DNA of 56,022 nt from a virus (lineage: Duplodnaviria > Heunggongvirae > Uroviricota > Caudoviricetes): positions 1-56,022 of IMG/VR virus record IMGVR_UViG_2534681672_000003; one strand, written 5' to 3'. Shown piece after piece: positions 9,744 to 36,790 of the stretch. The first letter of the stretch is position 1. Every line of letters begins with the position of its first letter. Under the pieces are notes generated by a model. It was not told where the DNA came from, searched no databases, and worked only from the letters and a program-made list of their open reading frames with translations. Both the position numbers and the translations under genes were made by a program.

Positions 9744-10384
9744 TTGTCGGTATACCTCTCTCGTTTGCTCAGTTGTTCAGGAATATGGTGCAGCAGCTCG
9801 CCATCACCACAGTAAATGGCGGCATGATTCGGCACCGATGAACCAAAACAGCACAGCAGCACATCGCCCGGTTGTGCTGATGACAACGGCACCTGATACA
9901 GCCCTGTGGCCTCCAGATTATCCAGATAGAGATTCTGACCGTGACGCCACCAGTCATCCTCGCGATGAAAATCCGGCATCTCAATCCCCGCCAGATGATA
10001 AGCATCCCGGAACAGCGTGTAACAGTCCGTCACCCCGTGCTCAAAGCGCCGCCCGGTGAGATGCGGCACACAGCGGAACTTATGAATCGCCCCCCGGCAG
10101 ACCAGCAACCACGGCAAATCACTCTGCACCTGCAGCCGCCGGTCAGCCTCACTCAGCCAGGGCAGACCACCGGGGTGGCTGTGGACCAGCGCCACAATCT
10201 CACCCTGCATTTCTGCCTGCAGCCAGTCCTCCGGAGCCATCCGGAAATAATCCTCCGGCTCACCGGAGATATTCACGCAGGGGAAATATCTTTCCCCCTC
10301 CGGCGTGCTTACCACGAAGCCGCACGACTCCGCTGGCGCACATCGCCGGGCGTGCGCCAGAATCGCTGATTCTGTCTCTGTCAT
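9641..10384 (-). CDS. K: tail tip assembly protein K (NlpC/P60 + MPN-like)
   Basis: The start was moved to MTETESAILAHARRCAPAESCGFVV, as in lambda gpK. The ORF-track N-terminal extension overlaps L. Confidence 0.9.
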   Translation of the reverse strand: MTETESAILAHARRCAPAESCGFVVSTPEGERYFPCVNISGEPEDYFRMAPEDWLQAEMQGEIVALVHSHPGGLPWLSEADRRLQVQSDLPWLLVCRGAIHKFRCVPHLTGRRFEHGVTDCYTLFRDAYHLAGIEMPDFHREDDWWRHGQNLYLDNLEATGLYQVPLSSAQPGDVLLCCFGSSVPNHAAIYCGDGELLHHIPEQLSKRERYTDKWQRRTHSLWRHRAWRASAFTGIYNDLVAASTFV

Positions 10385-10388
10385 GGGA

Positions 10389-11087
10389 TTACTGCGAAAG
10401 TTTGTTAATGGAAAGGAAGCCGCCAAAGTTGCCGACGTTATTGCGGAACTTACAACCGCTCAGGCATTTGCTGCATTTATCCTTCGTGATATCGGACGTT
10501 GGCTGGTCATATTCATCCGCGACCGCCGGACCGTGATAACCGCACTCATCGCCGCGATAGGTCCAGGTGCAGGTGTTGGCCAGCATGATACGTCCTGGAA
10601 AAACAGCGCCGTCCGTTTCCGTCGGCGTGGACAGTACAAAAGAGGCACTCACCGCGCTCAGTTCGCTGCACTGCTCAATACGCCAGCGGCTGATCACCTC
10701 CTGCTCCGGATCGGCGTCTCTGTTTCCGTTGACGAAGTTCACCGCATCCAGAAAACGGGCATAAACCTTACGCCTGACCACCGTTCCGCCGACCAGACTC
10801 TGCAGATCTTCCGCCATCCCGGTGACCATGCCATACAGGTTAGAAAGCGTCAGCGTGGGGCGCGTACTGGTGCCTTTGCCATTCAGTTCGAAACCACTCC
10901 CCTGAATGGGATACGCCTGATACTGTCGCCCCTGCCAGGTGACCGGCTCACCTTTTTCGTTCTGCTCATTACAGAAAAAATAACGTTCTCCACCAACCTC
11001 TGTCAGATCGATTTCCCAGAGCACCACGCTGGCAGACTGCTCCGCACGGGTGCATTCATTCAGTGTTTCCTGTCGGATATCCTGCAT
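10389..11087 (-). CDS. L: tail tip protein L
   Basis: 232-aa ORF, MQDIRQETLNECTRAEQSASVVLWEIDL..., matching lambda gpL. Confidence 0.92.
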   Translation of the reverse strand: MQDIRQETLNECTRAEQSASVVLWEIDLTEVGGERYFFCNEQNEKGEPVTWQGRQYQAYPIQGSGFELNGKGTSTRPTLTLSNLYGMVTGMAEDLQSLVGGTVVRRKVYARFLDAVNFVNGNRDADPEQEVISRWRIEQCSELSAVSASFVLSTPTETDGAVFPGRIMLANTCTWTYRGDECGYHGPAVADEYDQPTSDITKDKCSKCLSGCKFRNNVGNFGGFLSINKLSQ

Positions 11088-11416
11088 CAGTTCACCACCT
11101 GTTCAAACTCTGCGCTGAACTCAACACGCAACATACTGACCCGCGACGACCATTTTGCGCAGGTCACCTTTATCTGCCGGTAGCCATAAGGCGGCGTCCA
11201 CAGAAAGGCCTTCCAGCCTCCGTGCTCAGCCAGAAACGACTCCAGCGCCGCGGCCTCCCAACGGGGAACAGAAAGCGTCACGCTGTACGTTTTCAGGTCA
11301 GTGTTCAGCCCGGCAGGCGCTCGCTGGGAATAGCCATCACCAAAGCGCACCTTTCTTACGGAAGGGGCCGAAGCCACATCCATACCGGGTTTCACTTTCC
11401 AGCGGAAGGTTTTCAT
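11087..11416 (-). CDS. M: tail tip protein M
   Basis: 109-aa ORF in the gpM position between H and L. Confidence 0.9.
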   Translation of the reverse strand: MKTFRWKVKPGMDVASAPSVRKVRFGDGYSQRAPAGLNTDLKTYSVTLSVPRWEAAALESFLAEHGGWKAFLWTPPYGYRQIKVTCAKWSSRVSMLRVEFSAEFEQVVN

Positions 11417-13974: not shown

Positions 13975-14805
13975 ACCGGACTCCTCCTGCGATCCCTTCT
14001 GATACTGTCATCAGCATTACGTCATCCTCCGTCATGTCCGCCACATCCGGGGAAGCGGGGATAACTTCATTCCCGTCCGGGCCAAAGCGGACACCTCCGG
14101 CAAGCCCTGCCGCTTTCTGCATCAGCACATCATCTTCAGGCTCTTCGTCAGCCTCGCGCCGGTTCAGCAGACTGAAATCCAGCGGATGCATATCCGGATC
14201 GCTGAAAAACAGGCTGAGTACGGTGTACGTCAGCCCGGAAAAGTGCATATCCAGCAGAACATCATGAAAATAATGGGTACTGTAAAAGCGGTGCCAGTCG
14301 GCATACTCCGTGGATGACATCCCGGCAAGCATGGCACGCCAGTCGGGTCGCCCCATCTCGCGCGCCAGTTTCAGGGCAAAACTCAGCTCACCGTCGAACA
14401 CTTTCCCGCAGAAACAGGCTCTGCAGGCCCGGCGTCATCTGCCTGTTCAGGAGCATCATTCACCACAAACTCATACATACCGGACAGCCGGTACACCACG
14501 TTTTCAGCATGAGAAATTGCCTCCGTGGGCCAGGTGGTAAGCACTTCCTGCTCAATCTGTTTAACGGCTTCATTCATGGAAGGCAGCTTTGTCTTCTGCG
14601 GATGGTTATGCCACAGGGACATCGCCACCACAAAAGCGCCGGTTCTGATGGCGTCTTCCACAGTAAACTTCCGGTTGCTGTCTGACTCCGCCTGTTCTGC
14701 CTGTCGTTTCATCAGGGCGAGATGCTCAATACGCTGCAGGGCTGACAGTTCAGAAAGCGTGACGGTCACACCGTTATGTTCAAATGATTCGGTTTTCAGG
14801 AACAT
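13967..14805 (-). CDS. G-T: tail assembly chaperone G-T (product of a programmed -1 frameshift)
   Basis: The G frame (14805-14383) and T frame (14401-13967) overlap at the slippery site. The T frame continues as VFDGELSFALKLAREMGRPDW, as in lambda. Confidence 0.85.
14383..14805 (-). CDS. G: tail assembly chaperone G
   Basis: 140-aa ORF, MFLKTESFEHNGVTVTLSELSALQRIEHLAL..., matching lambda gpG. Confidence 0.92.
   Translation of the reverse strand: MFLKTESFEHNGVTVTLSELSALQRIEHLALMKRQAEQAESDSNRKFTVEDAIRTGAFVVAMSLWHNHPQKTKLPSMNEAVKQIEQEVLTTWPTEAISHAENVVYRLSGMYEFVVNDAPEQADDAGPAEPVSAGKCSTVS
14401..14407 (-). promoter_or_regulatory. G-T -1 frameshift slippery heptamer G GGA AAG
   Basis: The plus strand reads CTTTCCC, which is GGGAAAG on the coding strand. 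The heptamer lies at the end of G, as in lambda. Confidence 0.85.
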
Positions 14806-17352: not shown

Positions 17353-18143
17353 TTACGCCAGTTGTACGGACACGAACTCATCAGGGTCAGCCAGCAGCAT
17401 CAGCGGTGCTGACTGAATCATGGTGAACTCACGCGCCGGATCGCCGGTGGTCACCCAGTTTTTCGGGTAGCGGGCAGAGGCGTTAATGCCTTCGCGCTGT
17501 GCGTCCGCATCCTGAATGCAGCCATAGGTGCGCAGACCGCGTGCCTGAGTGTTCCCCAGCACCATCGTGTTGTCCGGCAGGAAGTTCTTTTTGACGCCGT
17601 TTTCCACGTACTGTCCGGAATACACGACGATGGCCACATCGCCATACATTCCCTTATAGGACACCGCTTTGCCCAGGTCTTTTACCGCTGTCTCCAGCTC
17701 GGAATGAGAGCCGCGACGGGTATCCAGCTTCTCCCTGACGGCTTTGAAAGAACGGAACAGCGCCCAGCCTTTCGGATCAAACACGATGATATTCACCACA
17801 CCGCTGGCGTTCAGCGCGTAGGCTTCGATATCGTCTGTCGGGTCATACGTGGACTTGTCACGCTTGCTCCACTCCGTGCCGCCGGACTGCGTGATGTTAT
17901 TCGCCTCACTGCGGCCCATATCCACCTCAACCGGATCGAAGGCTTCACCGGTCATGGTGTATTTGCCCTTAAGCACGGCAGAAACTGCCTGCATCTCTTC
18001 GACCTGAGCAATGGCCAGCTCTTCGTCACGCATGTTCTGCATGATGATGCGACGGCGGCGGTAAGTCGGGTCCGCCAGATTCTGCGGATCTTCATCCGGC
18101 AGGCGACGCAGGGTCATCTGCGGATTCACCTCATGCTTCGGCT
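17353..18143 (-). pseudogene. E: major capsid protein E, 3' part (codons ~79-341), separated from its 5' part by the insertion
   Basis: The minus strand reads (K)PKHEVNPQMTLRRLPDEDPQNLADP...EFVSVQLA, collinear with the lambda gpE C-terminus. No start codon or ribosome-binding site is left at the break. Confidence 0.95.
18134..18143. repeat. left copy of the 10-bp direct repeat (att core) TGCTTCGGCT
   Basis: Identical to 29567-29576. It lies exactly where E homology stops. Confidence 0.9.
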
Positions 18144-18277
18144 ACATGAGTCAAATATGAAAGGATGTGAATGATTTGATTACGTTTTAGCTATAGAATT
18201 GAAATGGAAAATCCTTGAATGCAATACAACGTGCAATACATGGATGAAAACCATCACTCATTTAACAAGAGGAATCT

Positions 18278-19183
18278 ATGCGCTCACCCAACAGAATGCA
18301 TGAACGCTCAACATTTTATAAGTATATGTCGTTGAATACCGCGAAGATTGTTCTTGATTCATGCAGCCTTAGATGGAGTTCTCCGGTCCTATTTAATGAC
18401 CCTTTTGATGTTCCAAGAGAAGTTATGCCTGGTATTAACGAAATTAATATTGGCAAAGCTTTAGCCCGCAAGTTAATAGCGGAGTTGATTACCCCCAGAG
18501 AAGACATACAAAATTTAAACCCTAGAATTAGAACAATGCTAAGTGATTTCCAAAAGTCATTTCCTTTAGGCATACCCGCAGGATTAATTGAAAGATTTCA
18601 AGAAATGGTAAACATTCCACCAGTTGGGATTGGCGCTCCTGCGGCAATACAAGAAATGAAAGATGTCTGGCGAGGAATGCTTAATAACAGAAGGATTTTG
18701 TGTTTATCTGAGAGCCCTATAATCACTCCTATGTGGAATCACTATGCCGATAAATATAAAGGTATAGTTATCGAATTTGATTGTGTAGACTTTCTGGATA
18801 GCGCTTGGTTAATAGCCAAACCTATGAAATACACAGATGAAATGCCTCTAACTCACACTGCTGAAGGGATGGCCGAGTTGCTTTTCATGCCAGACAATAA
18901 GTCAATTGAATATATCAATAATGAGATAATATTCATAAAAACAGAAGAATGGGCATATGAAAGAGAGTGGAGAATTTCAACCTACGCTAGGCCAAATAGC
19001 ACTGGTCAATATAGCGACTTAAAATTTCACCCTTTTGAGTTAAAATCTGTAATACTTGGTCCTCTTTTTGATGCCAGCGAGTTCGATGAAGTCGCATCAC
19101 TAGTTAAGATGTATCCAAGAGCGAAATTATTTAAAAGTTCATTTGGGAACGACAGAAAAATATCCATAGTACCACTACCTTAA
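18278..19183 (+). CDS. cargo protein with a DUF2971-like N-terminal signature
   Basis: 301-aa ORF with a ribosome-binding site AAGAGG. FYKYMSLNTAKIVLDSCSLRWSSPVLFNDPFD resembles the DUF2971 family signature, by recall. The gene is AT-rich, opposes the core genes, and has its own terminator. Confidence 0.55.
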   Translation: MRSPNRMHERSTFYKYMSLNTAKIVLDSCSLRWSSPVLFNDPFDVPREVMPGINEINIGKALARKLIAELITPREDIQNLNPRIRTMLSDFQKSFPLGIPAGLIERFQEMVNIPPVGIGAPAAIQEMKDVWRGMLNNRRILCLSESPIITPMWNHYADKYKGIVIEFDCVDFLDSAWLIAKPMKYTDEMPLTHTAEGMAELLFMPDNKSIEYINNEIIFIKTEEWAYEREWRISTYARPNSTGQYSDLKFHPFELKSVILGPLFDASEFDEVASLVKMYPRAKLFKSSFGNDRKISIVPLP

Positions 19184-19213
19184 AAGGTCAAATGCTTTTG
19201 ACAAATAAAATCT

Positions 19214-19239
19214 ATCGCCAGTTTTACTGGCGACTTTTA
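19214..19239. terminator. hairpin plus T-run between the convergent cargo and Nu1-like genes
   Basis: TCGCCAG-TTTTA-CTGGCGA followed by CTTTT. Confidence 0.6.
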
Positions 19240-19289
19240 AGCAACAAAGAACCACCTAAGCACTCTTCCTACCTATGGTTTCATTTGTT

Positions 19290-19841
19290 TTAACTTCGCT
19301 GATTATCCTTGATATACCTTTCAGCCATATCTGGAATGTTATCTGAGATCTGGTAAGCTCGAATAAATGCTTTACTGACCTCCATCTTAATGAAGTCCTG
19401 ATACCGTTTTCCCATGCCAGGAAACTGTCGACAGATCGCAAGTGGAAGACTATCAATGATTGCTCCAACTTCCCCAGTTAATTTCGACAAGGCATAAGTC
19501 GCAAATGCAGTGTCAATTACCTCACCTGTTTCGCTGGCATTCTTCAGTTCCTGTGCGTCGGCCTGCGCACGCGTAAGTCGATGGCGTTCATACTCAATAG
19601 TCCCTGGCAGGAGATCTGCCTCGCTGGCCTGCCGCAGTTCTTCAACCTCCCGGCGCAGCTTTTCGTTCTCAATTTCAGCATCCCTTTCGGCATACCATTT
19701 TATGACGGCGGCAGAGTCATAAAGCACCTCATTACCCTTGCCACCGCCTCGCAGAACGGGCATTCCCTGCTCCTGCTAGTTCTGAATGGTACGGATACTC
19801 GCACCGAAAATGTCAGCCAGCTGCTTTTTGTTGGCTTCCAT
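19290..19841 (-). pseudogene. Nu1-like small terminase gene with an in-frame TAG at codon 22
   Basis: MEANKKQLADIFGASIRTIQN*QEQGMPVLRGGGKGNEVLYDS... The first ~100 codons are almost identical to the resident Nu1, and the C-terminal ~80 codons are divergent. The ORF track picks up only from M27 (19763). Confidence 0.8.
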
Positions 19842-20085
19842 TGTTCATTCCACGGACAAAACCAGAGAAAGGAAACGACAGAGGCCAAAAAGCCTGTTTT
19901 TAGCACCTGTCGTTTCCTTTCTTTTTAGGGGGTGTTTTTAATAAAAACATTAAGTTACGGCGAAGAAGAACGGAAACGCCTTAAACAGGAAAATTTTCAC
20001 AAATAGCGAAAAACTGCGCGCCTGACGCCCCGTAGCCTGTCAGATCGCCGGAAAGGACCCGCCAGCCAGAGCGGGCCCTAATTTC
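19842..20085 (-). other. satellite cos region (cosB-cosN-cosQ-like); predicted cosN 12-mer at 20019-20030
   Basis: Collinear, without indels, with the resident cos at 35829-36048. The 12-mer CGCCTGACGCCC replaces AGGTCGCCGCCC. Confidence 0.75.
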
Positions 20086-20086
20086 A

Positions 20087-20470
20087 TCAACCAATCAGCT
20101 TATAGCGACCATCCCGTGCATTGCGGCGTACACGCTCAATCTTGAGGCATAGCGCCGCATCTGGCTTTTTTGGGACAGGTACGCGGCAATATTCAGAAGC
20201 GCGAGGAATATTATTTATCCAGTCGATCACTTCACTTAAATACCAGGCCTTACGCCCTTCCGTAACCTGCACACGCTCCGGGAACTCTCCACTAGCCTCA
20301 AGGTTTAGCAGTGTACGACGACTCAGGGTTGTAATTTCCATCACCTGATTCATATCAACAAGGCGCTCGCTTAAACACATTTTGTCAGCGATAGCTTTTA
20401 ATTCCTCTACAGCTGGATTCGGGTACATCATTTCGGCAATTGGCTTAAGGTCATTGTAATCATTCTGCAT
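20087..20470 (-). CDS. AlpA/MerR-superfamily HTH protein with N- and C-terminal extensions
   Basis: 127-aa ORF. The core MEITTLSRRTLLNLEASGEFPERVQVTEGRKAWYLSEVIDWI fits the AlpA-family pattern. A GGGGGA ribosome-binding site is present, and the gene is tightly coupled behind the D-like gene. Confidence 0.6.
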   Translation of the reverse strand: MQNDYNDLKPIAEMMYPNPAVEELKAIADKMCLSERLVDMNQVMEITTLSRRTLLNLEASGEFPERVQVTEGRKAWYLSEVIDWINNIPRASEYCRVPVPKKPDAALCLKIERVRRNARDGRYKLIG

Positions 20471-20481
20471 TGTATCCCCCT

Positions 20482-20823
20482 TTACACACGAGCCAGCGGC
20501 TGAACAGAAATACCTGAGCCAACAAACGCTGCAACCTTTACTGACAGTTCTTTAACAGACTCAGGCCAGTTCAGAGCATCAACATTTAAGACACCTGTCT
20601 TATAGACCTGAGCCTGTGTTTTTTTCGCGGTGTCGATTTGTACAGCGGAAACATAAACCGCTTTACCTACGCTCGAACCATCCCATACCACCAGTGCACC
20701 TGTTGCATCTTCCTGCATCAGTGGCGTAAATGCAGGAATTACCCCTTTATTAGCTGAAAATATCCCCAGCGTAGTCACCAGTGCTTCAGTGCCAGCCATG
20801 AGTTCAGTGTAATGAGTAGCCAT
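20482..20823 (-). CDS. head decoration protein, lambda gpD-like
   Basis: 113-aa ORF. It aligns by eye with gpD at TPLM..LV.WDG..., YK.G..., WPE... and AF.G..IS. Confidence 0.65.
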   Translation of the reverse strand: MATHYTELMAGTEALVTTLGIFSANKGVIPAFTPLMQEDATGALVVWDGSSVGKAVYVSAVQIDTAKKTQAQVYKTGVLNVDALNWPESVKELSVKVAAFVGSGISVQPLARV

Positions 20824-20832
20824 TGCTCCCCC

Positions 20833-21873
20833 TTAGCCAATGCGAACGGTAACAAAACGATTGATGCGGGCCGGTATTGGCTGTGGTGCTGAATGTGTCT
20901 GCACATATTCAATAGCCGGATCACCAGGCACAATATAGTTTTTCGGTGCAAGTTCGGCTTTAGTCAGCCCCATTCGGATTAGCTCCGGATCCTGAATACC
21001 GCCATAGGCGACAATCCCCTGAAGAGCCGTATTGCCAAGCACCATCAAATCAGGATCAAGGAAATGTTTTTCTGTTCCGTCCTCGTCGGTATAACGCCCG
21101 CTGTAAACAACAATCGCAACATCGCCCATATACCCTTTAAAACTCACCGAATCACCAAGGTCTTTAAGGGCCGTTTCCAGTTCGGAATTAGAACCACGAC
21201 GGGTATCCAAAGCCTCTTTTATCGCTCTGAATGAACGGTATTTCTTCCATACATTACCACCCATAATGATGATATTAGTGACGCCCTCACTAAATTCTGC
21301 GTAGCTCTCAATATCATCATTTGGATCAAAAGTTTCTTTATCCTTACCTGACCACTCAGTACCGCCAGACTGAGTGATGATATTTTGTGGTTTTATATTC
21401 CAGTCCAGCTCATAACGTTCAATACCATCGCCCTCAATGATATTTTTCCCCGTTGTGATAGCCTGAACAGCAAGCCATTCAATACGTGCACGAATAGCTT
21501 TAGCCTGATTTACAATCGCCTGTTTAACTTTAATATTACGCGCCCCAAAAGCATTGTATTGCTCAGGTGACACACCAGCAGGGCGCACAGCTAACTTATT
21601 TGGATCAATGCTGCTTTTCGGCTTCATATAACCTGGACGAATTGTTTTTGATTCGTATCCCTCATCTCGTGAAACTTTACTGCCCACCATAGGAGAGCAA
21701 AACGCCGCGATCGGGATATTTGGATCGTCGATCGTATCAAGAATAATGTCTCTCGATTCAAACATTACCGAGCGAGTGAAAAACAAACTGGTAAACAACG
21801 CATTTAATTTTTTTTGTACATCTACAGCATTAACCACCTGTACAAGCTGAGTAGGCGAATATAAATCAACCAT
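20833..21873 (-). CDS. major capsid protein, lambda gpE-like (satellite-encoded)
   Basis: 346 aa from MVDLYSPTQLVQVV. Conserved blocks are QSGGTEWS..DK.T.DP.DDIE.YA and LDTRRGSNSELETA.KDLG..VS.KG..GDVAIVVYSG. AAGAGG lies upstream of the ATG at 21873. Confidence 0.85.
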   Translation of the reverse strand: MVDLYSPTQLVQVVNAVDVQKKLNALFTSLFFTRSVMFESRDIILDTIDDPNIPIAAFCSPMVGSKVSRDEGYESKTIRPGYMKPKSSIDPNKLAVRPAGVSPEQYNAFGARNIKVKQAIVNQAKAIRARIEWLAVQAITTGKNIIEGDGIERYELDWNIKPQNIITQSGGTEWSGKDKETFDPNDDIESYAEFSEGVTNIIIMGGNVWKKYRSFRAIKEALDTRRGSNSELETALKDLGDSVSFKGYMGDVAIVVYSGRYTDEDGTEKHFLDPDLMVLGNTALQGIVAYGGIQDPELIRMGLTKAELAPKNYIVPGDPAIEYVQTHSAPQPIPARINRFVTVRIG

Positions 21874-22069
21874 ACGCATCCTCTTTGCATTCATTAAAAA
21901 TAATTGTGGATATATGCTATCACCGATATTTGTCATGCGAACACATGCAACCGAGTGCAATGTTGTATAAAGTTTTGGGGTGACAACTTCAGTGCGGACA
22001 ATTAGTGTTAATATCTTCACTCCCTTTGGTCGGGATTTATGTAGCATGCAGGAAAATTTATTTTTTCCG

Positions 22070-22790
22070 GCCTTTTTGTGCACAGAAAACCCCCAGCTAG
22101 GCTGGGGGTTCCGGAAAGCTTTCAGCTTTGAGCCAGTTATTAAAACCCCTTTTGATTTGTTAAAACACTTTGCGGTCTGGCAACTGCAAGTGTCAAACAA
22201 GAAATCAAAAGGGGGTCCCAATGGGGAACGAAAAGAGCTTAGCGCACACCCGATGGAACTGTAAATATCACATAGTTTTTGCGCCAAAATACCGAAGACA
22301 GGTGTTCTACAGAGAGAAGCGTAGAGCAATAGGCAGTATTTTGAGAAAGCTGTGTGAGTGGAAAAGCGTACGGATTCTGGAAGCTGAATGCTGTGCAGAT
22401 CATATCCATATGCTTGTGGAGATCCCGCCCAAAATGAGCGTATCCGGGTTTATGGGATATCTGAAAGGGAAAAGCAGTCTGATGCTTTACGAGCAGTTTG
22501 GTGATTTGAAATTCAAATACAGGAACAGGGAGTTCTGGTGCAGAGGGTACTACGTCGATACAGTGGGTAAGAACACGGCGAAGATACAGGATTACATAAA
22601 GCACCAGCTTGAAGAGGATAAAATGGGAGAGCAGTTATCGATTCCCTATCCGGGCAGCCCGTTTACGGGCCGTAAGTAACGAAGTTGGATGCAAATGTCA
22701 GATCGTGTGCGCCTGTTAGGGCGCGGCTGGTAAGAGAGCCTTATAGGCGCATTTGAAAAACCTCCGGCTATGCCGGAGGATATTTATTTT
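22070..22790 (+). mobile_element. IS200 (IS200/IS605 family) copy; ends approximate
   Basis: tnpA is flanked by the characteristic hairpins CCCCCAGCTAGGCTGGGGG (left) and CCTCCGGCTATGCCGGAGG (right). The size is about 0.7 kb. Confidence 0.7.
22221..22679 (+). CDS. tnpA: IS200 Y1 (HuH) transposase TnpA
   Basis: MGNEKSLAHTRWNCKYHIVFAPKYRRQVFY...HIHMLVEIPPKMSVSGFMGYLKGKSS... is the typical 152-aa IS200 TnpA. Confidence 0.92.
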   Translation: MGNEKSLAHTRWNCKYHIVFAPKYRRQVFYREKRRAIGSILRKLCEWKSVRILEAECCADHIHMLVEIPPKMSVSGFMGYLKGKSSLMLYEQFGDLKFKYRNREFWCRGYYVDTVGKNTAKIQDYIKHQLEEDKMGEQLSIPYPGSPFTGRK

Positions 22791-22801
22791 ATTGGCAATA
22801 T

Positions 22802-23251
22802 TTAAAACGGGATATCATCTCCCCATTGCTCATTATCTCCCACTGGTGGCTGGCTTCCTTGCTGATCTGCCTGTTGTTTTGCTCTGTTCAGTGCGTCAGT
22901 AGCCTGCCCCTGTTGGCCTTTATTGCCGCCCGGTCGCACCGATCGCGCACTGATTACGCTGTCTGCGATAACCTGCCAGCCCTGCCGCGTTTCGCCGTTC
23001 TGTCCAGTCCACTGGCTCATCTGCATGTTACCCGCCACGCTCAGGAGTTCGCCTTTGTGATGCTTTGCCAGCGCGTCGGCTTGTCTGCCAAACGCCAGGA
23101 CAGATAACCACATCGTCGCCTGACCGTCATCCGACTGACTGCAGGGCAGTGATACCGCCATACGCGCCAACGTCATGGGGGTGCCCTTGCTGGTCTGTTT
23201 TGTCTGCGGGTCGTCCACCGACCGCCCGTAAACTGATATTTGCGCCGTCAT
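22802..23251 (-). CDS. ssb: single-stranded DNA-binding protein
   Basis: 149-aa ORF with an OB-fold-like N-terminus and a Gly/Gln-rich linker. It ends with the canonical SSB tip ...DDIPF. Confidence 0.8.
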   Translation of the reverse strand: MTAQISVYGRSVDDPQTKQTSKGTPMTLARMAVSLPCSQSDDGQATMWLSVLAFGRQADALAKHHKGELLSVAGNMQMSQWTGQNGETRQGWQVIADSVISARSVRPGGNKGQQGQATDALNRAKQQADQQGSQPPVGDNEQWGDDIPF

Positions 23252-23493
23252 GCGGCCTGCTCTCCGGACTTAATATTGATTGTTGTCACTTCCTCCGCTT
23301 CAGCAATCTCCCGTTCGGTCAGAGTGGCAAAGTTTGCAGCCGCCGTTGTCATGAATGCGCTAATCAGTTCGGGATGTGCTTTCGCGTATCCTTCCCCGGC
23401 GTTGCGGTCGATGATTTTTATCGACACCCTTAACCAGTGTTCCGTCAAATCAAGGGCGTGCGATTGTGATTTTTTTGTGTGCTTCGCTGTCAT
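23248..23493 (-). CDS. hypothetical protein
   Basis: 81-aa ORF whose stop overlaps the ssb start by 4 nt. It lies directly downstream of the origin repeats. Confidence 0.5.
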   Translation of the reverse strand: MTAKHTKKSQSHALDLTEHWLRVSIKIIDRNAGEGYAKAHPELISAFMTTAAANFATLTEREIAEAEEVTTINIKSGEQAA

Positions 23494-23544
23494 AGGCTTT
23501 ATCTCACAGCAGTAAATTAAAATTTTTGCGTTTTAACCCTTCAC

Positions 23545-23767
23545 CTGTTCACCTTTTGATATTTTCTCTTTTAATTCATAATGTTAATGGGTGAACAGTT
23601 TCACAAAAACTATTCACCAACTGTTCACCACTGTTCACCCTTGAAGCTCAATAAACAATCAAAAAGGTGAACAGTGAATAGTTTGGTGAACAGTTCATAA
23701 ATAACTGTTCACCCTATAATATACTGATATAAAAGATATTTATGACAGGGTGAACAGTGGTGAACAG
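23545..23767. repeat. satellite replication origin: iterons GGTGAACAG / CTGTTCACC with AT-rich spacers
   Basis: The perfect 9-mer occurs 5 times forward (23590, 23666, 23685, 23749, 23759) and 4 times inverted (23545, 23621, 23631, 23705), plus degenerate copies. The region sits just after the replication gene. Confidence 0.8.
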
Positions 23768-23780
23768 TTATTCCATAAGT

Positions 23781-25601
23781 TTAATTTTTGCTATCGTCAT
23801 TAGTGACCGATACACATGATGGCATCCAGTCTTCTGATTCCTCCGTCAGGGTCACGTTTGAACGCAAACCGTGCTTCGTTTTCCGTTTCATATACTCCCT
23901 GCCATATTCCGCCATTGCCCCCGGCATATCTTTACCGAAGCGCGTCAGTGTTACAGGTTTACCAAACCCATGTGCCCTCATATAAGCCAGATAGGCATGA
24001 TAGAGATACCTGCGTGGGCTGAATGGCACAATTTCAGCATTACCCACTAACAGGCCATCACACATTACCGATGCCATGAGATAACCGCAGAAGTCCACCA
24101 GCGAATCCCCCTCTCGCTTTATCGCCAGTGCTTCTTCAGATTTCTGCTGCTCATATAACAGGCGTCTGGCTTCGTCCTGATCAGCAAACCTTGTAAGCAG
24201 ATGACGAATCACTACCGCCAGCTCACCTTCTATTTTTTCCGCCAGCATCGAATCGCGTTCGTTCTCCGGTACAACTTCCGAAAAATTGAATATCACCCGA
24301 CGACGTGAGATCCCCCCGCTGCGGTCACTGAATGACATGGCGTTATTGTTAACCGCCAGCACTACTGCCGGAATACGCGTTGAATAGGGGGCTTTGTGTT
24401 TCGGGTCAATTGCCACCTTGTCACCGCCTGTAATGGCCTTAATCCCTGCCCCATCACCAGCGTAGCGGGTCATATCCGGCATGATAATCAGCGAAAAGCC
24501 AACCACTAACGCACGTTCCCTTGCATCTTCCAGCGCCTTCATGCTTGCTGATACTGTATTAGCCTTACCCGCCAGCATGGTGCAAATCTCCGCCATCACA
24601 CTTTTACCACTTCCCCCCGGCCCTGTTACCTCAATGAATAACTGCCAGTCGTACCGGTTCGCCAGCACCATGAATAATGCCGCCAGTACGCGATCTGCCT
24701 TGCGGTCATTCTCAGCCACCGAACGGCGCAACCACTTCCAGAAATTCGGCGCATGTGTTGCCAGCGTTTCCCCCTCTGCTGGTGGGCTGAAAGGTAATTC
24801 ACTGGCAATTAACAACCAGTCGTTTTTGTTATGCTCCCGAAAGTTACCAGTTCTGGTATCAAATACCCCGTTACTGAATCCAATCAGGTTACGGGCTGTA
24901 TTCCCCATTACAGGCAAACTTAACTTCATGGTATCTACCGCCGATTTAATAGCGTTCTGCGAATAGCTGATCTCCGCATCAATGAAAATCTGCGCCATAG
25001 CACGCTGTAACTCTTTATCCTGAACCGGCTCCCATACAACGCCGTTGTAATGATGAACGGTGTCAGAGTCGGCATTGATTGCCAGTTCGCCGCCGTAATG
25101 TGCAAGGAGAACTTCACCGCGCTGGCTGGCCCCCATCTGATTCAACGCCAAAGATGAAGCACGCTCGTCATTTTTGCGCTCAGCCTTCTTCACTGGCAGT
25201 TCAATCACCAGACTTTCCCCATGCTCCGCTTCAGCTTTTAGGCCGACAAGGCGCGGAGTCCAGTCTTCAGGCTCTCGATCAACAAAGCTACGGTAACAAC
25301 GTGCTTCCTTTACGCCTGCAATAGCAAGTAATGTCGCAACCTTCGTCAGACTTTTCTCTGCAATCTTTCCGGCACGATAAACACGCACATAATGACGGCC
25401 TTCATCGATAATTTGCATATCATCCAGGTTTTCCAGTTGTTCCGTACCCAGAATGACTGGTGGTGTATCATCTGCTGCAATATGCTTACCTGCCCATTCA
25501 TTCCATTCTTTTGCATGGCTCCAGGCATCACTGCCAGCAAAAATGATGACTTCCGTCATTTTGTCGCGCGGTTGGTATTTTAAGTTCGGAGCACGTTTCA
25601 T
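23781..25601 (-). CDS. replication protein: D5/P4-alpha-type SF3 helicase (primase-helicase family)
   Basis: 606-aa ORF with the Walker A motif GPGGSGKS. The surrounding pattern is typical of the phage/plasmid primase P4-family C-terminal domain. The ATG overlaps the upstream stop (ATGA). Confidence 0.8.
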   Translation of the reverse strand: MKRAPNLKYQPRDKMTEVIIFAGSDAWSHAKEWNEWAGKHIAADDTPPVILGTEQLENLDDMQIIDEGRHYVRVYRAGKIAEKSLTKVATLLAIAGVKEARCYRSFVDREPEDWTPRLVGLKAEAEHGESLVIELPVKKAERKNDERASSLALNQMGASQRGEVLLAHYGGELAINADSDTVHHYNGVVWEPVQDKELQRAMAQIFIDAEISYSQNAIKSAVDTMKLSLPVMGNTARNLIGFSNGVFDTRTGNFREHNKNDWLLIASELPFSPPAEGETLATHAPNFWKWLRRSVAENDRKADRVLAALFMVLANRYDWQLFIEVTGPGGSGKSVMAEICTMLAGKANTVSASMKALEDARERALVVGFSLIIMPDMTRYAGDGAGIKAITGGDKVAIDPKHKAPYSTRIPAVVLAVNNNAMSFSDRSGGISRRRVIFNFSEVVPENERDSMLAEKIEGELAVVIRHLLTRFADQDEARRLLYEQQKSEEALAIKREGDSLVDFCGYLMASVMCDGLLVGNAEIVPFSPRRYLYHAYLAYMRAHGFGKPVTLTRFGKDMPGAMAEYGREYMKRKTKHGLRSNVTLTEESEDWMPSCVSVTNDDSKN

Positions 25602-25885
25602 TTGTTACCTCCGGCAACTAACATTGCCCGAATTTTACGGATATAGCCTGCGGCACGCCTCTGATTATCTGTCTTGCAATTTTTTACCAGAATGAAATCT
25701 CTTTCGAACTGCTGACGCGGCATAACACATTCAAAATCATAACCATCACGCAAATAAGAGACACGACGATCATCAACCGAAATAATCTTTACCCGATAGC
25801 CATAGCTGTCTTTGAAAATATCCCCAAGGCTGATTTTTGAATGAGTTTGACCGCTGGCAATAAAGCCAGAAAATTTATTTTTCAT
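25598..25885 (-). CDS. DUF4222-like small protein
   Basis: 95 aa. The pattern Y.V.II..D..RV.Y.R.G...ECVM.R..F..DF..V matches the family signature by recall. Confidence 0.5.
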   Translation of the reverse strand: MKNKFSGFIASGQTHSKISLGDIFKDSYGYRVKIISVDDRRVSYLRDGYDFECVMPRQQFERDFILVKNCKTDNQRRAAGYIRKIRAMLVAGGNK

Positions 25886-25888
25886 TTT

Positions 25889-26113
25889 TTATTCTCCGGT
25901 ATAGCTCTGGTCGTGTATTTTTATAGCTTCATCCAGCTCTTTGATGACAGGATCAAGTAACGTAATTAACGCTCCAGCTAAATTAGCATCCCGTTCATCG
26001 TGTTCCGCATTTGTTGTCCCATCAAGCCAGGTTGATAAGATTTCTCGCATATTTTTGCCACAAACGAGCGCGTTTTCAGCATGTGTCAGCACTTTAAAAT
26101 AAAGATCATTCAT
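25889..26113 (-). CDS. hypothetical protein
   Basis: 74-aa ORF in the leftward operon. No family was recognised. Confidence 0.45.
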   Translation of the reverse strand: MNDLYFKVLTHAENALVCGKNMREILSTWLDGTTNAEHDERDANLAGALITLLDPVIKELDEAIKIHDQSYTGE

Positions 26114-26471
26114 GGCACACCTCCTGACGAATACGGGCGGCGAATATCATCACGTAGCCAGTTGGGAATTGCTGGCGGGCTTCCTGTTCGCTGGCGGCCT
26201 CGATGTGTATTACGCGTGGTTGTGCGGTGCTCAGGGCGATAAAACGCCAGATGAAATTGTTTTCGCATTTCTGAATAAACAGCGTGTTTTCTTCACGCCC
26301 TTTCCAGAAAGCCGCAGTATAGCCCATCTCCTTAACCATCTTGCGGGCATCAACCAGCGTGTCAGCGGCAACATGTACCGTAGTTGCTCCATCTGCCATG
26401 CGGTCGTGGTGTAGTGCCAGAAAGGTGTATATAAATTTAGGGTGAGTTTGGGTATGCTGTGTTCCAGCCAT
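26106..26471 (-). CDS. Icd-like (host cell division inhibitor-like) protein
   Basis: Start set at MAGTQHTQTHPKF with a GAGG ribosome-binding site. FIWRFIALSTAQPRVIHIEAASEQEARQQFPTGYVMIFAARI fits the Icd-like pattern, and a weaker first repeat lies upstream. Confidence 0.55.
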   Translation of the reverse strand: MAGTQHTQTHPKFIYTFLALHHDRMADGATTVHVAADTLVDARKMVKEMGYTAAFWKGREENTLFIQKCENNFIWRFIALSTAQPRVIHIEAASEQEARQQFPTGYVMIFAARIRQEVCHE

Positions 26472-26557
26472 AATCGTTACCTCGTTTAACGGTTTGGTTA
26501 GAAGCCCGGTTAGTGTTCGCGCACTGCCGGGTTTCGTCGTTTTTATGAATCGATCAT

Positions 26558-26660
26558 TGTGAGATACATAGCGACCATGATGTGAGATATACATTATAAT
26601 GTGGTGATATACATTGCAAGTGTTTTTATATCTCACTTTTGTGTATAGTGATATACACAT
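26558..26660. promoter_or_regulatory. divergent control region with repeated operator-like motif GTGA(G/T)ATA(TA)CAT
   Basis: Copies lie at about 26558, 26580, 26600 and 26646, with an inverted copy at 26627. The region sits between the leftward icd-like operon and the rightward RHH-like gene. Confidence 0.6.
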
Positions 26661-26679
26661 AACAAATTGGTGATTAACT

Positions 26680-26982
26680 ATGTCTGTATACAAAAATGCA
26701 AAATCGCAAATGACAACGATCAGGGTTCCCCACGATGTTATGGAGGGCATGGAATCCGTAAAACTGGACGGCGAAAGCAACGCCGGATTCATAGTAACCG
26801 CCATGCGCGGTGAGATCGCCCGCCGCCAGGCAGAAGGAAGCGGAGAAAATCCCCTCGTGTCTTCACTGGATGCCTTAGCTAAGGTCGAACAAATCGGCAT
26901 CAAGGCAGCGGAGGAAATCGGGCAACTCGTAGCCGTCGCTCGTGAAGAACTCCAGCGGCGTAAAGCCAAAGAATCTGAATAA
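26680..26982 (+). CDS. putative ribbon-helix-helix (CopG/Arc-like) regulator
   Basis: TTIRVPHDVMEGMESV...NAGFIVTAMRGEIARR fits a strand-helix-helix layout. The true start may be the internal M at MTTIRVP. Confidence 0.45.
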   Translation: MSVYKNAKSQMTTIRVPHDVMEGMESVKLDGESNAGFIVTAMRGEIARRQAEGSGENPLVSSLDALAKVEQIGIKAAEEIGQLVAVAREELQRRKAKESE

Positions 26983-27332
26983 TTACTATCAGCGCCGTGA
27001 TGTGAGTAACTACGGCGCATTGCTATGTAAATACTGGCAATAAACAGAAAAGGTAGTTCTACTCCGAATAATTTTATCTGACACTACTCCTGAACTAACA
27101 TGCGCTTATCTTACAGGATATAAATATAGATCCATAAAATCACGATTAAATAAAGCCGCTCCAAACATAAACCACACCCAACGCTTAACAAGATAGCAAC
27201 AAACAGATAAATAACTTGCAGAAATATTTATCGCAAGGATTATCATTATTAATTACAAATCACTTTACCAAGTCATTCCCCTCTCTTATCATAAAGAGAA
27301 AGTAATAAATAAGTTAAGGGAGTTAGAATACT

Positions 27333-27869
27333 ATGAATCTAAAAAAAATAGCCACAAACATAAAAAACAAGATAATAGAAACATTCAATAAACTTATATT
27401 AGAGGCATCTAAAACCCCCACACAAGATGAAATTAAAATACTTGAGAGAAGAAGTAAAAAGTTTAATTACTCCTTTTTCTCATACGCAGTCACAGGAGCC
27501 ATAATGGTTTTTTGCTCTCAACCATTAATAAAATACGCAAACCCAATGCTTATTTTATTGAGTGGTCTGTTACTGTCTATCATCATTATCCTTCTCAGAA
27601 TGATTTATATTTCACAAGCGAATGCATCATGGACAACCAAAAAACGTTCACATGTACTAGTTCATTTTCTTTCTGCATGTTTCATAGCGTCAACATTGAC
27701 GTTGTTATATCAGGCTTACGATAATAACATCACACACAAATTGTACTGTAAAAATATACAACAACTTATTGAAAAAAGGATAGAAACAGAAAAAAATATC
27801 AGCATATTCAGTGGGATGCAATGCACCCCGGCATATGATTACTCTTTATTTGGATTTAATCTCTTATAA
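27333..27869 (+). CDS. cargo membrane protein (about 3 predicted TM helices)
   Basis: 178-aa ORF in a very AT-rich block. The hydrophobic stretches are AVTGAIMVFCSQPL, LILLSGLLLSIIIILL and LVHFLSACFIASTLTLL. Confidence 0.55.
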   Translation: MNLKKIATNIKNKIIETFNKLILEASKTPTQDEIKILERRSKKFNYSFFSYAVTGAIMVFCSQPLIKYANPMLILLSGLLLSIIIILLRMIYISQANASWTTKKRSHVLVHFLSACFIASTLTLLYQAYDNNITHKLYCKNIQQLIEKRIETEKNISIFSGMQCTPAYDYSLFGFNLL

Positions 27870-27938
27870 AGAATGTTATTACTGATTTGAGTGCAAATTC
27901 TCAAATCAGTAATTCATAATATTTTATTCTGAGATAAT

Positions 27939-28166
27939 TTAAACTACCCACTCACCTCGAATCCATGCCTGCACTTCTGAAAGACGATATGCAACAGCAG
28001 TGGAGCCAATCTTGATCCGCTTAGGAAATTTCCCTTCCTTCTCCAGCTTCCAGCGTGTGCTGTTCGCAAGAGTGGTTAGCTCCCGACATTCTTTCTCACG
28101 GATCATACGATCGATGTTAGGAATGTACTCCAAACCCTTTTTATCAACAATCGCCATTTTTTTCAT
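27939..28166 (-). CDS. alpA: AlpA-family transcriptional regulator/excisionase
   Basis: 75 aa. IREKECRELTTLANSTRWKLEKEGKFPKRIKIGSTAVAYRLSEVQAWI is a typical Phage_AlpA HTH. The gene lies directly downstream of int. Confidence 0.8.
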   Translation of the reverse strand: MKKMAIVDKKGLEYIPNIDRMIREKECRELTTLANSTRWKLEKEGKFPKRIKIGSTAVAYRLSEVQAWIRGEWVV

Positions 28167-28167
28167 G

Positions 28168-29403
28168 TTAACCAGCCTTTTGTTTGAGGATTATCACTTT
28201 TGAATCAGCACCTGCGATGCTATTGAGATATGTAGTCCAGAGTTCCAGAGCATCCAGTTTTTTAGCCATAAACTTACTCCGGTTGTAAACACCTGCCACG
28301 CCAGGTAGCGCATGGCCTAACAGTTGTTCTACTACATAAAATTCAACACCGAGATCACTTAGATGAGTAGATAGCGTTCTTCTAAGGTCGTGTAGTGACC
28401 ATTGTTTTTCATGGCCCAAACGTTTACCGATTTTCCCCCCAATCTTGCTTACGCTTTCTCTAATTCGCAGACTTCCCAGCACATAACCAGTATGTTTTGT
28501 CTCTTCGTGAACATCCGTTACCCACTGTCGTAGAATTTCAGGTACTGGTCTGACGATTTCAACACCAGTTTTTGAGTGATCTTTTGGTACCGTCCAAACC
28601 CAACTTTCGAGATCCCATTCGCTCCATTCAGATAATCGGGCTTCACTCATTCGACATCCAAATACTGTACAAAGCACAAACATTTTTCGCGTGTATTCAG
28701 ACATTAGTTTTAAATCAGGCTCGACAAAAATTGCCTTCCAGAGCTGGCCCAGTTCGGCTTCATCCAGAACCCGATCCCGCTTACCTGCAATCTGCCCCAC
28801 ATCACTCATGCGCAAATCCTTTAAAGCATCACATGTCGCGTACTGGCGTACCCGACAAAAACGAAGAGCTAATTTAGTGTCAGAAAAAACATACGCCGCC
28901 ATAACTGGTGCATTACGTTTAATTCGGTCAAAACAGTCCAGCCATTCATATAGGTGAGTGTCATTTACAGGCAAATGACCGATATAGGGAAAGATATGCT
29001 TTCGAAATCTGCCAAGCGTTACAGCATGAGTTTTACGACGCACCTTACAGTAATTTTCATACCAGTAATTTAGTGCATCCTCCACTGTGACCGGCTTTAA
29101 GCGTTCTTCAGCCTGAATCTTAATCTGGATACGCGGATCACGTTTGTCAGCCAACCAACCACGGCACTCGTCGCGCTTTTCCCTTGCCTGTTTGAGTGAC
29201 ATATCAGGATATTTACCCAACGTTAGCCAGACCGGAGCAGCCCGGCCACCTGCTAACCTGTAGAAGAAAACAAAGCTCACAGCCCCCTTGGTACTCACAC
29301 GAATAGAAAGCCCCTTTCCATCAGCAATGGTGATCTGCTTTTCTCTGGGTTTCCCCAGATATCCTTTAAGCGCTTTGTCGCTCAGTTTGTTCTCGCCAGC
29401 CAT
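28168..29403 (-). CDS. int: tyrosine integrase, P4-type (DUF4102 arm-binding N-terminus)
   Basis: Start at MAGENKLSDKALKGYLGK. The N-terminus has GKGLSIRVSTKGAVSFVFFYRL, and the catalytic region has HDLRRT...LGHALPGVAGVYNR. The gene abuts the right att copy. Confidence 0.9.
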   Translation of the reverse strand: MAGENKLSDKALKGYLGKPREKQITIADGKGLSIRVSTKGAVSFVFFYRLAGGRAAPVWLTLGKYPDMSLKQAREKRDECRGWLADKRDPRIQIKIQAEERLKPVTVEDALNYWYENYCKVRRKTHAVTLGRFRKHIFPYIGHLPVNDTHLYEWLDCFDRIKRNAPVMAAYVFSDTKLALRFCRVRQYATCDALKDLRMSDVGQIAGKRDRVLDEAELGQLWKAIFVEPDLKLMSEYTRKMFVLCTVFGCRMSEARLSEWSEWDLESWVWTVPKDHSKTGVEIVRPVPEILRQWVTDVHEETKHTGYVLGSLRIRESVSKIGGKIGKRLGHEKQWSLHDLRRTLSTHLSDLGVEFYVVEQLLGHALPGVAGVYNRSKFMAKKLDALELWTTYLNSIAGADSKVIILKQKAG

Positions 29404-29566
29404 TTTTAGCCCCAAAAAGCAATACAAGCTGCAATACAGAGATGATTGCAACACACAGATAACGAGGAAAATTCAGTGAAAGCGCCAGATAAACTTATTC
29501 TTTATTATCAAAAGATTAAGTGTAAAAACCAGCAACTACACGAAAGCCTCAGAAAGCCATGCTAAG

Positions 29567-29576
29567 TGCTTCGGCT
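29567..29576. repeat. right copy of the 10-bp direct repeat (att core) TGCTTCGGCT
   Basis: Identical to 18134-18143. E homology resumes here. Confidence 0.9.
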
Positions 29577-29811
29577 TGACATATCCCGGCGTAAATTCAG
29601 AGGTGGAGCCGCCACGGGAACGGATAACCTCACCGGAAACAATCGGCGAAACGTACAGCGCCATGTTTACAAGTCCCGGAATTTGTGAGAGATAGACTTT
29701 CTCCGTAGTGAAGGGATAGCTCTCACGGAAAAAGAGACGCAGAAACAGCGGATCAAACTTAAATTTCTGCTCATTTGCCGCCAGCAGCTGGGCGGTTGTG
29801 TACATCGACAT
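29567..29811 (-). pseudogene. E: major capsid protein E, 5' part (codons 1-82)
   Basis: MSMYTTAQLLAANEQKFKFDPLFLRLFFRESYPF...EFTPGYVKPKH matches the lambda gpE N-terminus. The frame then runs into satellite DNA (LAWLSEAFV*). Confidence 0.95.
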
Positions 29812-30863: not shown

Positions 30864-31009
30864 TTGCCATCCACCTTATGGCTGCCGCTGTAAATCAGCG
30901 TGATTTCCACGCCCTGTTTCTCCAGCGCAGCACCGTTTGCCATCCACCTTATGGCTGCCGCTGTAAATCAGCGTGATTTCCACGCCCTGTTTCTCCAGCG
31001 CAGCACCGT
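30864..31009. repeat. perfect tandem duplication, 2 x 73 bp, inside gene C
   Basis: TTGCCATCCACCTTATGGCTGCCGCTGTAAATCAGCGTGATTTCCACGCCCTGTTTCTCCAGCGCAGCACCGT occurs at 30864-30936 and again at 30937-31009. Confidence 0.95.
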
Positions 31010-35828: not shown

Positions 35829-36060
35829 TGTTCATTCCACGGCCAAAAACAGAGAAAGGAAACGACAAAGGCCCAAAAGTTCGTTTTCAGCACCTGTCGT
35901 TTCCTTTCTTTTCAGGGGGTATTTTAAATAAAAACATTAAGTTACGACGAAGAAGAACGGAAACGCCTTAAACCGGAAAATTTTCATAAATAGCGAAAAC
36001 CCGCGAGGTCGCCGCCCCGTAACCTGTCGGATCGCCGGAAAGGACCCGTTGGCCGTTCTG
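35829..36060 (-). other. cos: resident cos site (cosB, cosN, cosQ); cosN 12-mer at 36006-36017
   Basis: The minus strand reads ...CGACAGGTTACG GGGCGGCGACCT CGCGGGTTTTCGCTATTTATGAAAATTTTCCGG..., which is the lambda cohesive-end sequence. Confidence 0.9.
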
Positions 36061-36327: not shown

Positions 36328-36496
36328 TGGACAGATAGAGCGGTTTATTTCATTCCACAGGATTCTGAGTGCCCCCCCCCTCCTCCAATAGGCTGAGCAT
36401 CCACCTATATAGTTTTAATTTTCATCAATCCATTTAACTATCGTTTAATTGTTGTCACATAGGATTCTGCCGTTTTTAACAATGCAGGATAATAAG

Positions 36497-36790
36497 ATGA
36501 AAAAAATGTTGTTTTCTGCCGCTCTGGCAATGCTTATTACAGGATGTGCTCAACAGACGTTTACTGTTGGAAACAAACCGACAGCAGTAACACCAAAGGA
36601 AACCATCACCCATCATTTCTTCGTTTCGGGAATTGGACAGGAGAAAACTGTTGATGCAGCCAAAATTTGTGGCGGCGCAGAAAATGTTGTTAAAACAGAA
36701 ACCCAGCAAACATTCGTAAATGGATTTCTCGGTTTTATTACTTTAGGCATTTATACTCCGCTGGAAGCGCGTGTGTATTGCTCACAATAA
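36497..36790 (+). CDS. bor: Bor serum-resistance lipoprotein
   Basis: MKKMLFSAALAMLITGCAQQTFTVGNKPTAV... The lipobox is LITGC, and the 97 aa match lambda Bor. Confidence 0.92.
   Translation: MKKMLFSAALAMLITGCAQQTFTVGNKPTAVTPKETITHHFFVSGIGQEKTVDAAKICGGAENVVKTETQQTFVNGFLGFITLGIYTPLEARVYCSQ

Follow-up and report, generated by a model that had tools for sequence, protein, structure and literature searches.

A helper-embedded phage-inducible chromosomal island very probably splits the major capsid gene of an Escherichia coli lambdoid prophage

Why does a complete-looking lambdoid prophage carry its major capsid gene E in two pieces separated by more than 11 kb, and what is the DNA between them? 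The question is raised by a stretch of 56,022 nucleotides (IMG/VR record IMGVR_UViG_2534681672_000003; hereafter the window, to which all coordinates refer unless stated otherwise), which by blastn is near-identical to Escherichia coli SCU-102 (NZ_CP051753.1). We conclude with high confidence that the intervening DNA is a helper-embedded phage-inducible chromosomal island (PICI; helper-embedded form, HE-PICI) of the E:Phage_cap_E:80 site group (E:80), an 11.4-kb cos-type satellite that uses a P4-type integrase and whose helper is the prophage at argU. The arrangement is already known. HE-PICIs were named by Tommasini, Mageeney and Williams in a bioRxiv preprint of 2022 and in NAR Genom Bioinform in 2023 (PMC10111431); their survey counts 201 elements at the E:80 site and 491 over 14 late-gene sites, and the copy described here belongs to the largest catalogued site group. 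A first-pass annotation of the window had taken the arrangement to be new among satellites, a claim that falls, since the same arrangement has been published with 201 elements at the same site. The HE-PICI work has since been cited in satellite surveys and reviews.

The junctions are the first line of evidence. Gene E lies on the minus strand and is interrupted between 29567 and 18143. Read from 29811, its frame gives MSMYTT...GYVKPK through to 29567; the downstream fragment (17353-18143), when translated by itself from the core, shows stops, being out of phase. Removal of positions 18144 to 29576 (11,433 bp, that is, one copy of the att core plus 11,423 bp of interior) joins the two fragments in a 1,026-nt open frame. 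This frame encodes a lambda-type gpE of 341 amino acids that reads ...GYVKPKHEVNPQ... over the joint, with the core at codons 79-82. The satellite sequence completes neither fragment, and attP therefore brings no replacement gene end. The core itself is the 10-mer TGCTTCGGCT, present in only two copies in the window, one at each junction. In a control, 2 of 100 shuffled sequences likewise held two copies of this 10-mer, so that its duplication counts for little when taken alone. The GC content changes at the same place, from about 0.57-0.60 in the flanks to 0.32-0.51 in the insert. A doubled motif, tgTGTATTGCantgTGTATTGCa, has been described 81 +/- 2 bp upstream and 132 +/- 2 bp downstream of the attP centre in elements of this kind (PMC10111431). 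We found two co-oriented doubled copies of TGTATTGC whose distances in the reconstructed attP, taken from the core centre to the nearer motif edge, agree with these published values (Table 1). The junction coordinates and shared 10 bp of the first-pass annotation, as well as its rebuilt 341-codon E, are thus borne out by the 10-mer search and by translation, and its reading of the locus as site-specific integration into a coding att site agrees with the junctions, the arm motifs and the natural empty sites described below.

The second line of evidence comes from a census of 5,426 complete E. coli genomes. Of these, 176 match the integrase gene and its att arm at 95% identity or more, 175 of them almost over the whole query, and the 5' capsid-gene fragment adjoins the integrase in 172. 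These 172 complete genomes, which hold the right (integrase-side) junction, come from human, livestock, bird, frog and water sources in many countries; the exact left junction, which takes in the DUF2971 cargo gene, is found in 32 of the 172. Of 40 records sampled across the ranking, all but one, a truncated copy in IAI39, show a fragment of a major capsid gene under the match. Practically all copies of this integrase in complete E. coli genomes are thus located at the E site. Empty sites are also frequent. Two complete genomes hold intact capsid genes that are 100% identical to the rebuilt 400-bp empty site, and this site is unbroken (with at least 80% of it covered in a single place) in 3,101 of the 5,426. 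One of the two perfect matches, strain WP4-S18-ESBL-07, carries the same argU prophage at the same chromosomal place without the insert; the protein accessions of D, C and FI are identical to those of the helper, and E is intact and encodes 341 amino acids. In 80 deposited phage genomes, homology starts precisely with the first base of the core, 29567, and none of these 80 carries the integrase. The search for occupied and empty E genes that the first-pass annotation had proposed hence returns both, and its worry that the element might sit elsewhere at a non-phage site, with the E context unique to one assembly, does not match the distribution found.

The third line of evidence is the likeness to the published prototype, Eco567.11capE (11capE) of E. 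coli NRG857c, an 11-kb PICI in a lambda-type E gene with a 10-bp identity block, a capsid gene of its own and main genes co-oriented with the helper late operon (PMC10111431). After mitomycin C, the whole composite of prophage and satellite excises precisely and replicates first; precise excision of the satellite, with E restored, follows about an hour after that of the composite, as followed by quantitative PCR and deep sequencing (PMC10111431). When the capsid gene of a PICI itself was knocked out, this is reported to have been tolerated (PMC10111431). For many E_Phage_cap_E_80 elements, the supplement of that study gives the identity block as 'agccgaagca', which is the reverse complement of TGCTTCGGCT; the supplement also contains an element of exactly 11,433 bp whose helper, Eco9645.58.R, is by the naming scheme a 58-kb tRNA-Arg prophage (PMC10111431).

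From the 5' E fragment through cos, the present element and 11capE share 96.7-98.7% nucleotide identity, interrupted by a 709-bp gap at an IS200 insertion sequence, an indel of roughly 64 bp and a different 3' cargo end. The two integrases are identical at 409 of 411 amino acids, which places the present one within the 11capE clade, and the AlpA protein and a second helix-turn-helix protein have identical accessions in both elements. Gene order from int to cos, arm-motif spacing, co-orientation with the helper and the 12-mer at the cosN position are also the same. There are also differences. The core allele of 11capE is AACCCAAGCA instead of AGCCGAAGCA, with synonymous codons for K-P-K; the helper is at icd in NRG857c (PMC10111431) and at argU here; and the 3' end here holds a near-full-length Nu1-type small-terminase (terS) pseudogene and a DUF2971 gene, whereas 11capE has a short Nu1 remnant and a HEPN and DUF262 pair (10237-11953 of the NRG857c stretch compared). 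Nothing in the evidence contradicts membership in the HE-PICIs.

Of the four ordered zones published (Integration, Bro, Replication and Late), three are recognizable in the satellite, and in that order: Integration (int, alpA), Replication (the DUF4222 gene, primase gene, origin, ssb) and Late (capsid, decoration, terS). The int, alpA, primase and late genes are all on the minus strand, as are the helper genes Nu1 through J. Further small open reading frames (ORFs) follow the Icd-like gene and just precede ssb. The first-pass annotation had listed a P4-type integrase and alpA just inside the right junction, a replication gene and ssb, an iteron origin and a cos, and had noted the lack of portal, protease, large terminase and tail genes. 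Pfam confirms the integrase, AlpA, the primase/helicase and SSB; GGTGAACAG has 10 matches in the window, with 0.43 expected, and nine of them form the iteron array; the cos-like region is 94% identical to the cos-Nu1 region of the helper; and PGAP annotation together with Pfam searches of the ORFs found no portal, protease, large terminase, tail or lysis genes in the satellite. The genes listed were correct, while the capsid gene, the decoration gene, the terS pseudogene and the IS200 element had been missed. The helper's own E is split, as that annotation stated, and yet an intact E-family gene is present in the composite, namely that of the satellite.

Table 1. Positions of the satellite features and of the adjoining helper sequences in the window, in the direction of the minus strand
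Feature	Coordinates	Strand	Evidence or remark
Helper cosN 12-mer	36006..36017	-	Identical to that of lambda
Helper gene E, 5' fragment (codons 1-81), ends in att core	29567..29811	-	Translation; PGAP 'major capsid protein, missing C-terminus'
att core, integrase-proximal junction; gene strand AGCCGAAGCA	29567..29576		Exact 10-mer search
Doubled TGTATTGC arm motif	29418..29440	-	Starts 131.5 bp downstream of att core centre in reconstructed attP
P4-type tyrosine integrase	28168..29403	-	Pfam Arm-DNA-bind_3 and Phage_integrase domains
AlpA-family excisionase/regulator	27939..28166	-	Pfam Phage_AlpA, E = 2.8e-15; accession same as in 11capE
Hypothetical protein, 178 aa, accessory zone	27333..27869	+	Opposite strand; counterpart in 11capE
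YlcI/YnfO-family small protein	26680..26982	+	PGAP; without Pfam match
Icd-like cell-division inhibitor homolog	26106..26471	-	PGAP
DUF4222 protein, directly upstream of primase gene	25598..25885	-	Pfam, E = 3.4e-22
Primase/helicase	23781..25601	-	Pfam D5_N, DUF5906 and Pox_D5 domains
Iteron-type replication origin, nine GGTGAACAG copies in both orientations	23545..23767		Motif count
Single-stranded DNA-binding protein	22802..23251	-	Pfam SSB
IS200C insertion between ssb and satellite capsid gene	22078..22786	+	709-bp gap against NRG857c; Y1_Tnp, E = 3.8e-38
Satellite major capsid gene, intact, Phage_cap_E family	20833..21873	-	42% identical to rebuilt helper gpE
Satellite head-decoration gene, lambda D family	20482..20823	-	38% identical to helper D protein
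Second AlpA-family helix-turn-helix protein, 127 aa	20087..20470	-	Pfam; best PDB match 8c3t, AlpA family
Satellite cos region	19842..20061	-	cosQ-like and cosB-like sequence resembles that of helper
Nu1-family small-terminase (terS) gene, TGG to TAG at 19776-19778	19290..19841	-	PGAP 'internal stop'; Phage_Nu1, E = 1.3e-63
DUF2971 cargo gene, variable 3' end	18278..19183	+	PGAP start 18425; Pfam DUF2971
Doubled TGTATTGC arm motif	18220..18242	-	Ends 81.5 bp upstream of att core centre in reconstructed attP
att core, distal junction	18134..18143		Exact 10-mer search
Helper gene E, 3' fragment, begins in att core	17353..18143	-	Joined frame; PGAP 'major capsid protein, missing N-terminus'

Two regions of the satellite appear to be variable. 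The DUF2971 protein gives a PADLOC match to PDC-S31, a candidate defence family (E = 2.5e-32), which fits the 3' end as a cargo hotspot. The second zone, named the Bro zone in the published scheme, encodes only the YlcI/YnfO, Icd-like and hypothetical proteins. For the 178-aa protein, Pfam gave nothing above threshold, and PADLOC matched neither it nor the remaining small ORFs. In strain Res13-Lact-PEB20-37-A, the region between alpA and the Icd-like gene (20439-22242 of the stretch compared) has, instead of the 178-aa and YlcI/YnfO proteins, a hypothetical protein of 273 amino acids, a protein with a SWIM zinc finger and one small ORF, which fits a second accessory zone of variable content. 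Antisense to the start of the Icd-like gene, Rfam gives a match below threshold to the antitoxin RNA SymR (26466-26538, plus strand; 35.3 bits against a gathering score of 61 bits, E = 0.0014).

The element fits the traits of Gram-negative cos PICIs: int and alpA at one end, a primase and an origin, a size of about 10-15 kb and no lysis or tail genes. The model for these is EcCICFT073 (Fillol-Salom et al. 2018, 2019; PMC6739421), with which it shares the order int, helix-turn-helix/AlpA, YlcI/YnfO, Icd-like, DUF4222, primase, small ORF, ssb, E-family capsid, D-family decoration and then cos, as well as a lambdoid helper and the lack of portal, protease, TerL and tail genes. What separates them is the site. 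EcCICFT073 is located in the chromosome apart from its helper, whereas the present satellite lies inside helper gene E, and this is the difference between an ordinary PICI and an HE-PICI.

A probable course of events can be proposed from this arrangement. The integrase would have recombined the satellite attP with the 10-bp core in helper gene E, leaving the helper unable to make gpE before satellite excision. The composite measures about 55 kb or more. The packaging limit of lambda, a point raised in the HE-PICI study as well (PMC10111431), is about 105% of 48.5 kb, and the composite would therefore probably be too long for a lambda head. Between the 5' E fragment and int, a simple terminator scan of the minus strand from 29567 to 29403 detected no terminator-like site; in any case, terminators are ignored by polymerase once Q has modified it. 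Given the co-orientation and the lack of a terminator-like site before int, the Q-antiterminated late transcript of the helper probably runs into int-alpA and may in this way time late excision. Precise excision of this copy would be expected to restore E, as int, alpA and the att sites are intact and natural empty sites exist. The excised satellite would then replicate from its own primase and iteron origin, and would be packaged from its own cos by the helper terminase, with helper portal, protease and tails. We conjecture that a lambda-sized head would be full with four 11.4-kb copies; for EcCICFT073, packaging into capsids of phage size has been reported (PMC6739421). The dependence on a helper that the first-pass annotation had proposed is the right biological reading of a satellite without portal, protease, TerL and tail genes.

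Several points set limits to this reading. The original authors could recover virions of neither helper nor satellite, so that transfer of any E:80 HE-PICI is at most putative, and many helpers look truncated in their survey (PMC10111431). Read-through from the helper late operon, although probable, is inferred from gene orientation and a simple terminator scan. Rfam searches at E <=0.1 gave no P4-type C4/isrK immunity RNA in the satellite, and no Bro-N domain protein was identified by Pfam between alpA and the primase gene. Finally, this copy carries three potential lesions. The first is the IS200C insertion, which gives a strong Rfam STnc490 match (22088-22211, 144.6 bits) and a short match to Ysr202 (22756-22832; 30.4 bits against a gathering score of 315 bits) and is absent from 11capE and from the related elements of strains 95-3322 and Res13-Lact-PEB20-37-A. 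The second is the TAG nonsense codon in terS. The gene is intact, with 183 codons, in 95-3322 (13990-14541) and in Res13-Lact-PEB20-37-A (13991-14542; both in the stretches compared), and the stop is thus specific to this copy. The third is in the helper, where a perfect 73-bp tandem duplication (30864-31009, minus strand) frameshifts gene C, which encodes the S49 protease/scaffold.

These lesions are the main support for the most serious alternative, that this copy is an abandoned, non-transmissible HE-PICI remnant, which now serves only as a permanent knock-out of the prophage capsid gene and brings along a candidate defence gene. It is compatible with the identity of the element as an HE-PICI, and we regard it as possible, if somewhat doubtful. 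Besides the three lesions, the truncated look of many helpers and the failure to obtain virions (PMC10111431) would fit with it. The related composite of strain 95-3322 is a second case of a damaged helper head gene beside an E:80 satellite; there, the helper S49 peptidase gene C (24198-25514 of the stretch compared) is a pseudogene with an internal stop. The state of the rest of this copy argues in the other direction. The recombination and replication modules are intact: int, alpA, the att cores, the arm motifs, the primase gene, the iterons and ssb are all undamaged, as are cos and the satellite capsid and decoration genes. The IS200 insertion is intergenic, and 11capE, described as without terS, excises all the same (PMC10111431). 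The duplication in C, if it is a real lesion, would cripple the helper, but the near-identical strain does not have it in its RefSeq record, and it may therefore be strain-specific or an assembly error. Gene C is intact (439 amino acids) in NZ_CP051753.1 and in the empty relative WP4-S18-ESBL-07, and among the matches listed in complete genomes, 196 query bases map onto 123 record bases, with no duplication. Otherwise the window differs from NZ_CP051753.1 by six substitutions (1197, 1208, 17749, 22367, 22448 and 22562), three of them inside the IS200, and it therefore represents either a very close relative of SCU-102 or another assembly of it. Taken together, the IS200, the terS stop and the duplication suggest decay or, for the duplication, possibly an assembly difference, and this copy of the HE-PICI may be impaired by them.

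The remaining alternatives concern the identity of the element or the manner of its entry. It could be argued that homologous recombination or gene capture between the satellite capsid gene and helper E, and not the integrase, produced the split, as an E-family gene is part of the satellite and a GY(V/M)KPK motif occurs at the att position in both proteins. We consider this highly improbable: the two capsid proteins are only 42% identical, the satellite capsid gene does not contain the 10-bp core, the junction adjoins int and not that gene, the junctions are invariant in 172 genomes with arm motifs at fixed spacing, and the prototype excises precisely (PMC10111431).

The chance is equally slight that a capsid-forming PICI (cf-PICI) or a P4-like satellite merely sits in the prophage. 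The capsid, decoration and (pseudo) small-terminase genes recall the cf-PICIs (bioRxiv 10.1101/2022.09.08.507074), which likewise have their own major capsid protein and, as in relatives of the present element, an intact small terminase. However, the portal, protease, large terminase and connector genes that define cf-PICIs, and by which these need nothing but tails from a helper, are absent, and only capsid, decoration and the terS pseudogene are present. With P4 the satellite shares a P4-type integrase, AlpA next to int, a D5/alpha-type primase-helicase, cos packaging by a helper and a variable cargo hotspot, while P4 has a P2-like instead of a lambdoid helper and uses a tRNA-gene site instead of a site inside the helper. 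No Pfam matches to Sid, Psu or Delta, which act in capsid sizing and transactivation, were found among the annotated satellite ORFs, and together with the missing C4/isrK RNA this sets the element apart from P4-like satellites. The PICI-like elements (PLEs) of Vibrio differ as well, with a large serine recombinase and dependence on ICP1 in place of the tyrosine recombinase and lambdoid helper seen here in E. coli. Least credible of all is an assembly chimera in which the prophage was misjoined to an unrelated island, which has for it, beyond the general possibility, only the 73-bp duplication by which the window differs elsewhere from the RefSeq record, and against it the recurrence of the right junction in 172 independent complete genomes of many hosts and countries, that of the left junction in 32, and a survey that mapped 201 elements at the site and deep-sequenced excision junctions (PMC10111431).

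Only the cos region of this HE-PICI holds something that is possibly unreported; the main text of the published study has a single sentence on cos, about a shared 258-bp sequence (PMC10111431). The cosQ-like and cosB-like flanks are about 94% identical in satellite and helper, whereas the 12-mer at the cosN position (20019-20030) is GGGCGTCAGGCG in the satellite and GGGCGGCGACCT in the helper, with 5 of 12 positions different. All four E:80 satellites sampled (the window, 11capE of NRG857c, 95-3322 and Res13-Lact-PEB20-37-A) have GGGCGTCAGGCG, and their helpers, as well as EcCICFT073, carry the lambda version GGGCGGCGACCT. The 67-nt segment around the 12-mer was detected in about 97 complete E. 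coli genomes, and none of the deposited phage genomes matches this segment at more than 89.6%. EcCICFT073 has two exact lambda cosN 12-mers with a different cosB, and its Rpp protein redirects the helper TerS (PMC6739421). Compared with it, the cos logic of the present satellite is inverted, with a helper-like cosB and a differing cosN 12-mer. No Rpp homolog was found among four small satellite proteins in a PDB sequence search, that is, at the sequence level only. If the helper terminase nicks at the 12-mer, the cohesive ends of the satellite could not anneal to those of the helper. That E:80 HE-PICIs use a packaging-discrimination scheme inverse to the Rpp system is a speculative idea to which we give a rather low probability. 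The C-terminal third of the satellite terS diverges from helper Nu1, and the intact Nu1-type terS with its divergent C-terminus in some relatives could take part in such discrimination. Alternatively, the 12-mer may have drifted neutrally, in a site where nicking is poor or lacking.

As for the helper, this lambdoid prophage at argU/intD (tRNA-Arg, the DLP12 site) looks complete, with repressor, O/P, Q and lysis genes, Nu1 through D, FI through J and tail-fibre genes. It also carries several passenger genes of non-phage type at about 36400-46300 (NZ_CP051753.1 1212-1222 kb), namely iss, emrE, a ybcK-type recombinase gene, a lipocalin gene and a YbgA-family gene; such passengers are typical of lambdoid prophages at the DLP12 site. 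Within the tail-fibre gene, an imperfect tandem repeat (3943-4380) consists of two overlapping 249-bp segments, 85% identical at an offset of 189 bp.

Credit for the site group, the core, the arm motifs and the excision experiments belongs to the 2022-2023 publication. Our analysis leaves the classification unchanged and adds an independent census of complete genomes, a matched empty helper prophage and details of this copy and its lineage, namely the 12-mer at the cosN position, the terS gene that is intact in some relatives, the variable candidate-defence cargo and the signs of decay. Gene splits by excisable elements are known elsewhere, as with skin in Bacillus sigK and the active-lysogeny prophages in comK, and there, too, the element brings no replacement gene end and leaves by timed precise excision. 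In contrast to those cases, the gene split here is that of another mobile element, and under the published cis-regulation model (PMC10111431) the timing would benefit the satellite. The satellite keeps its helper's capsid gene hostage while it is replicated, and probably transcribed, in cis by that same helper.

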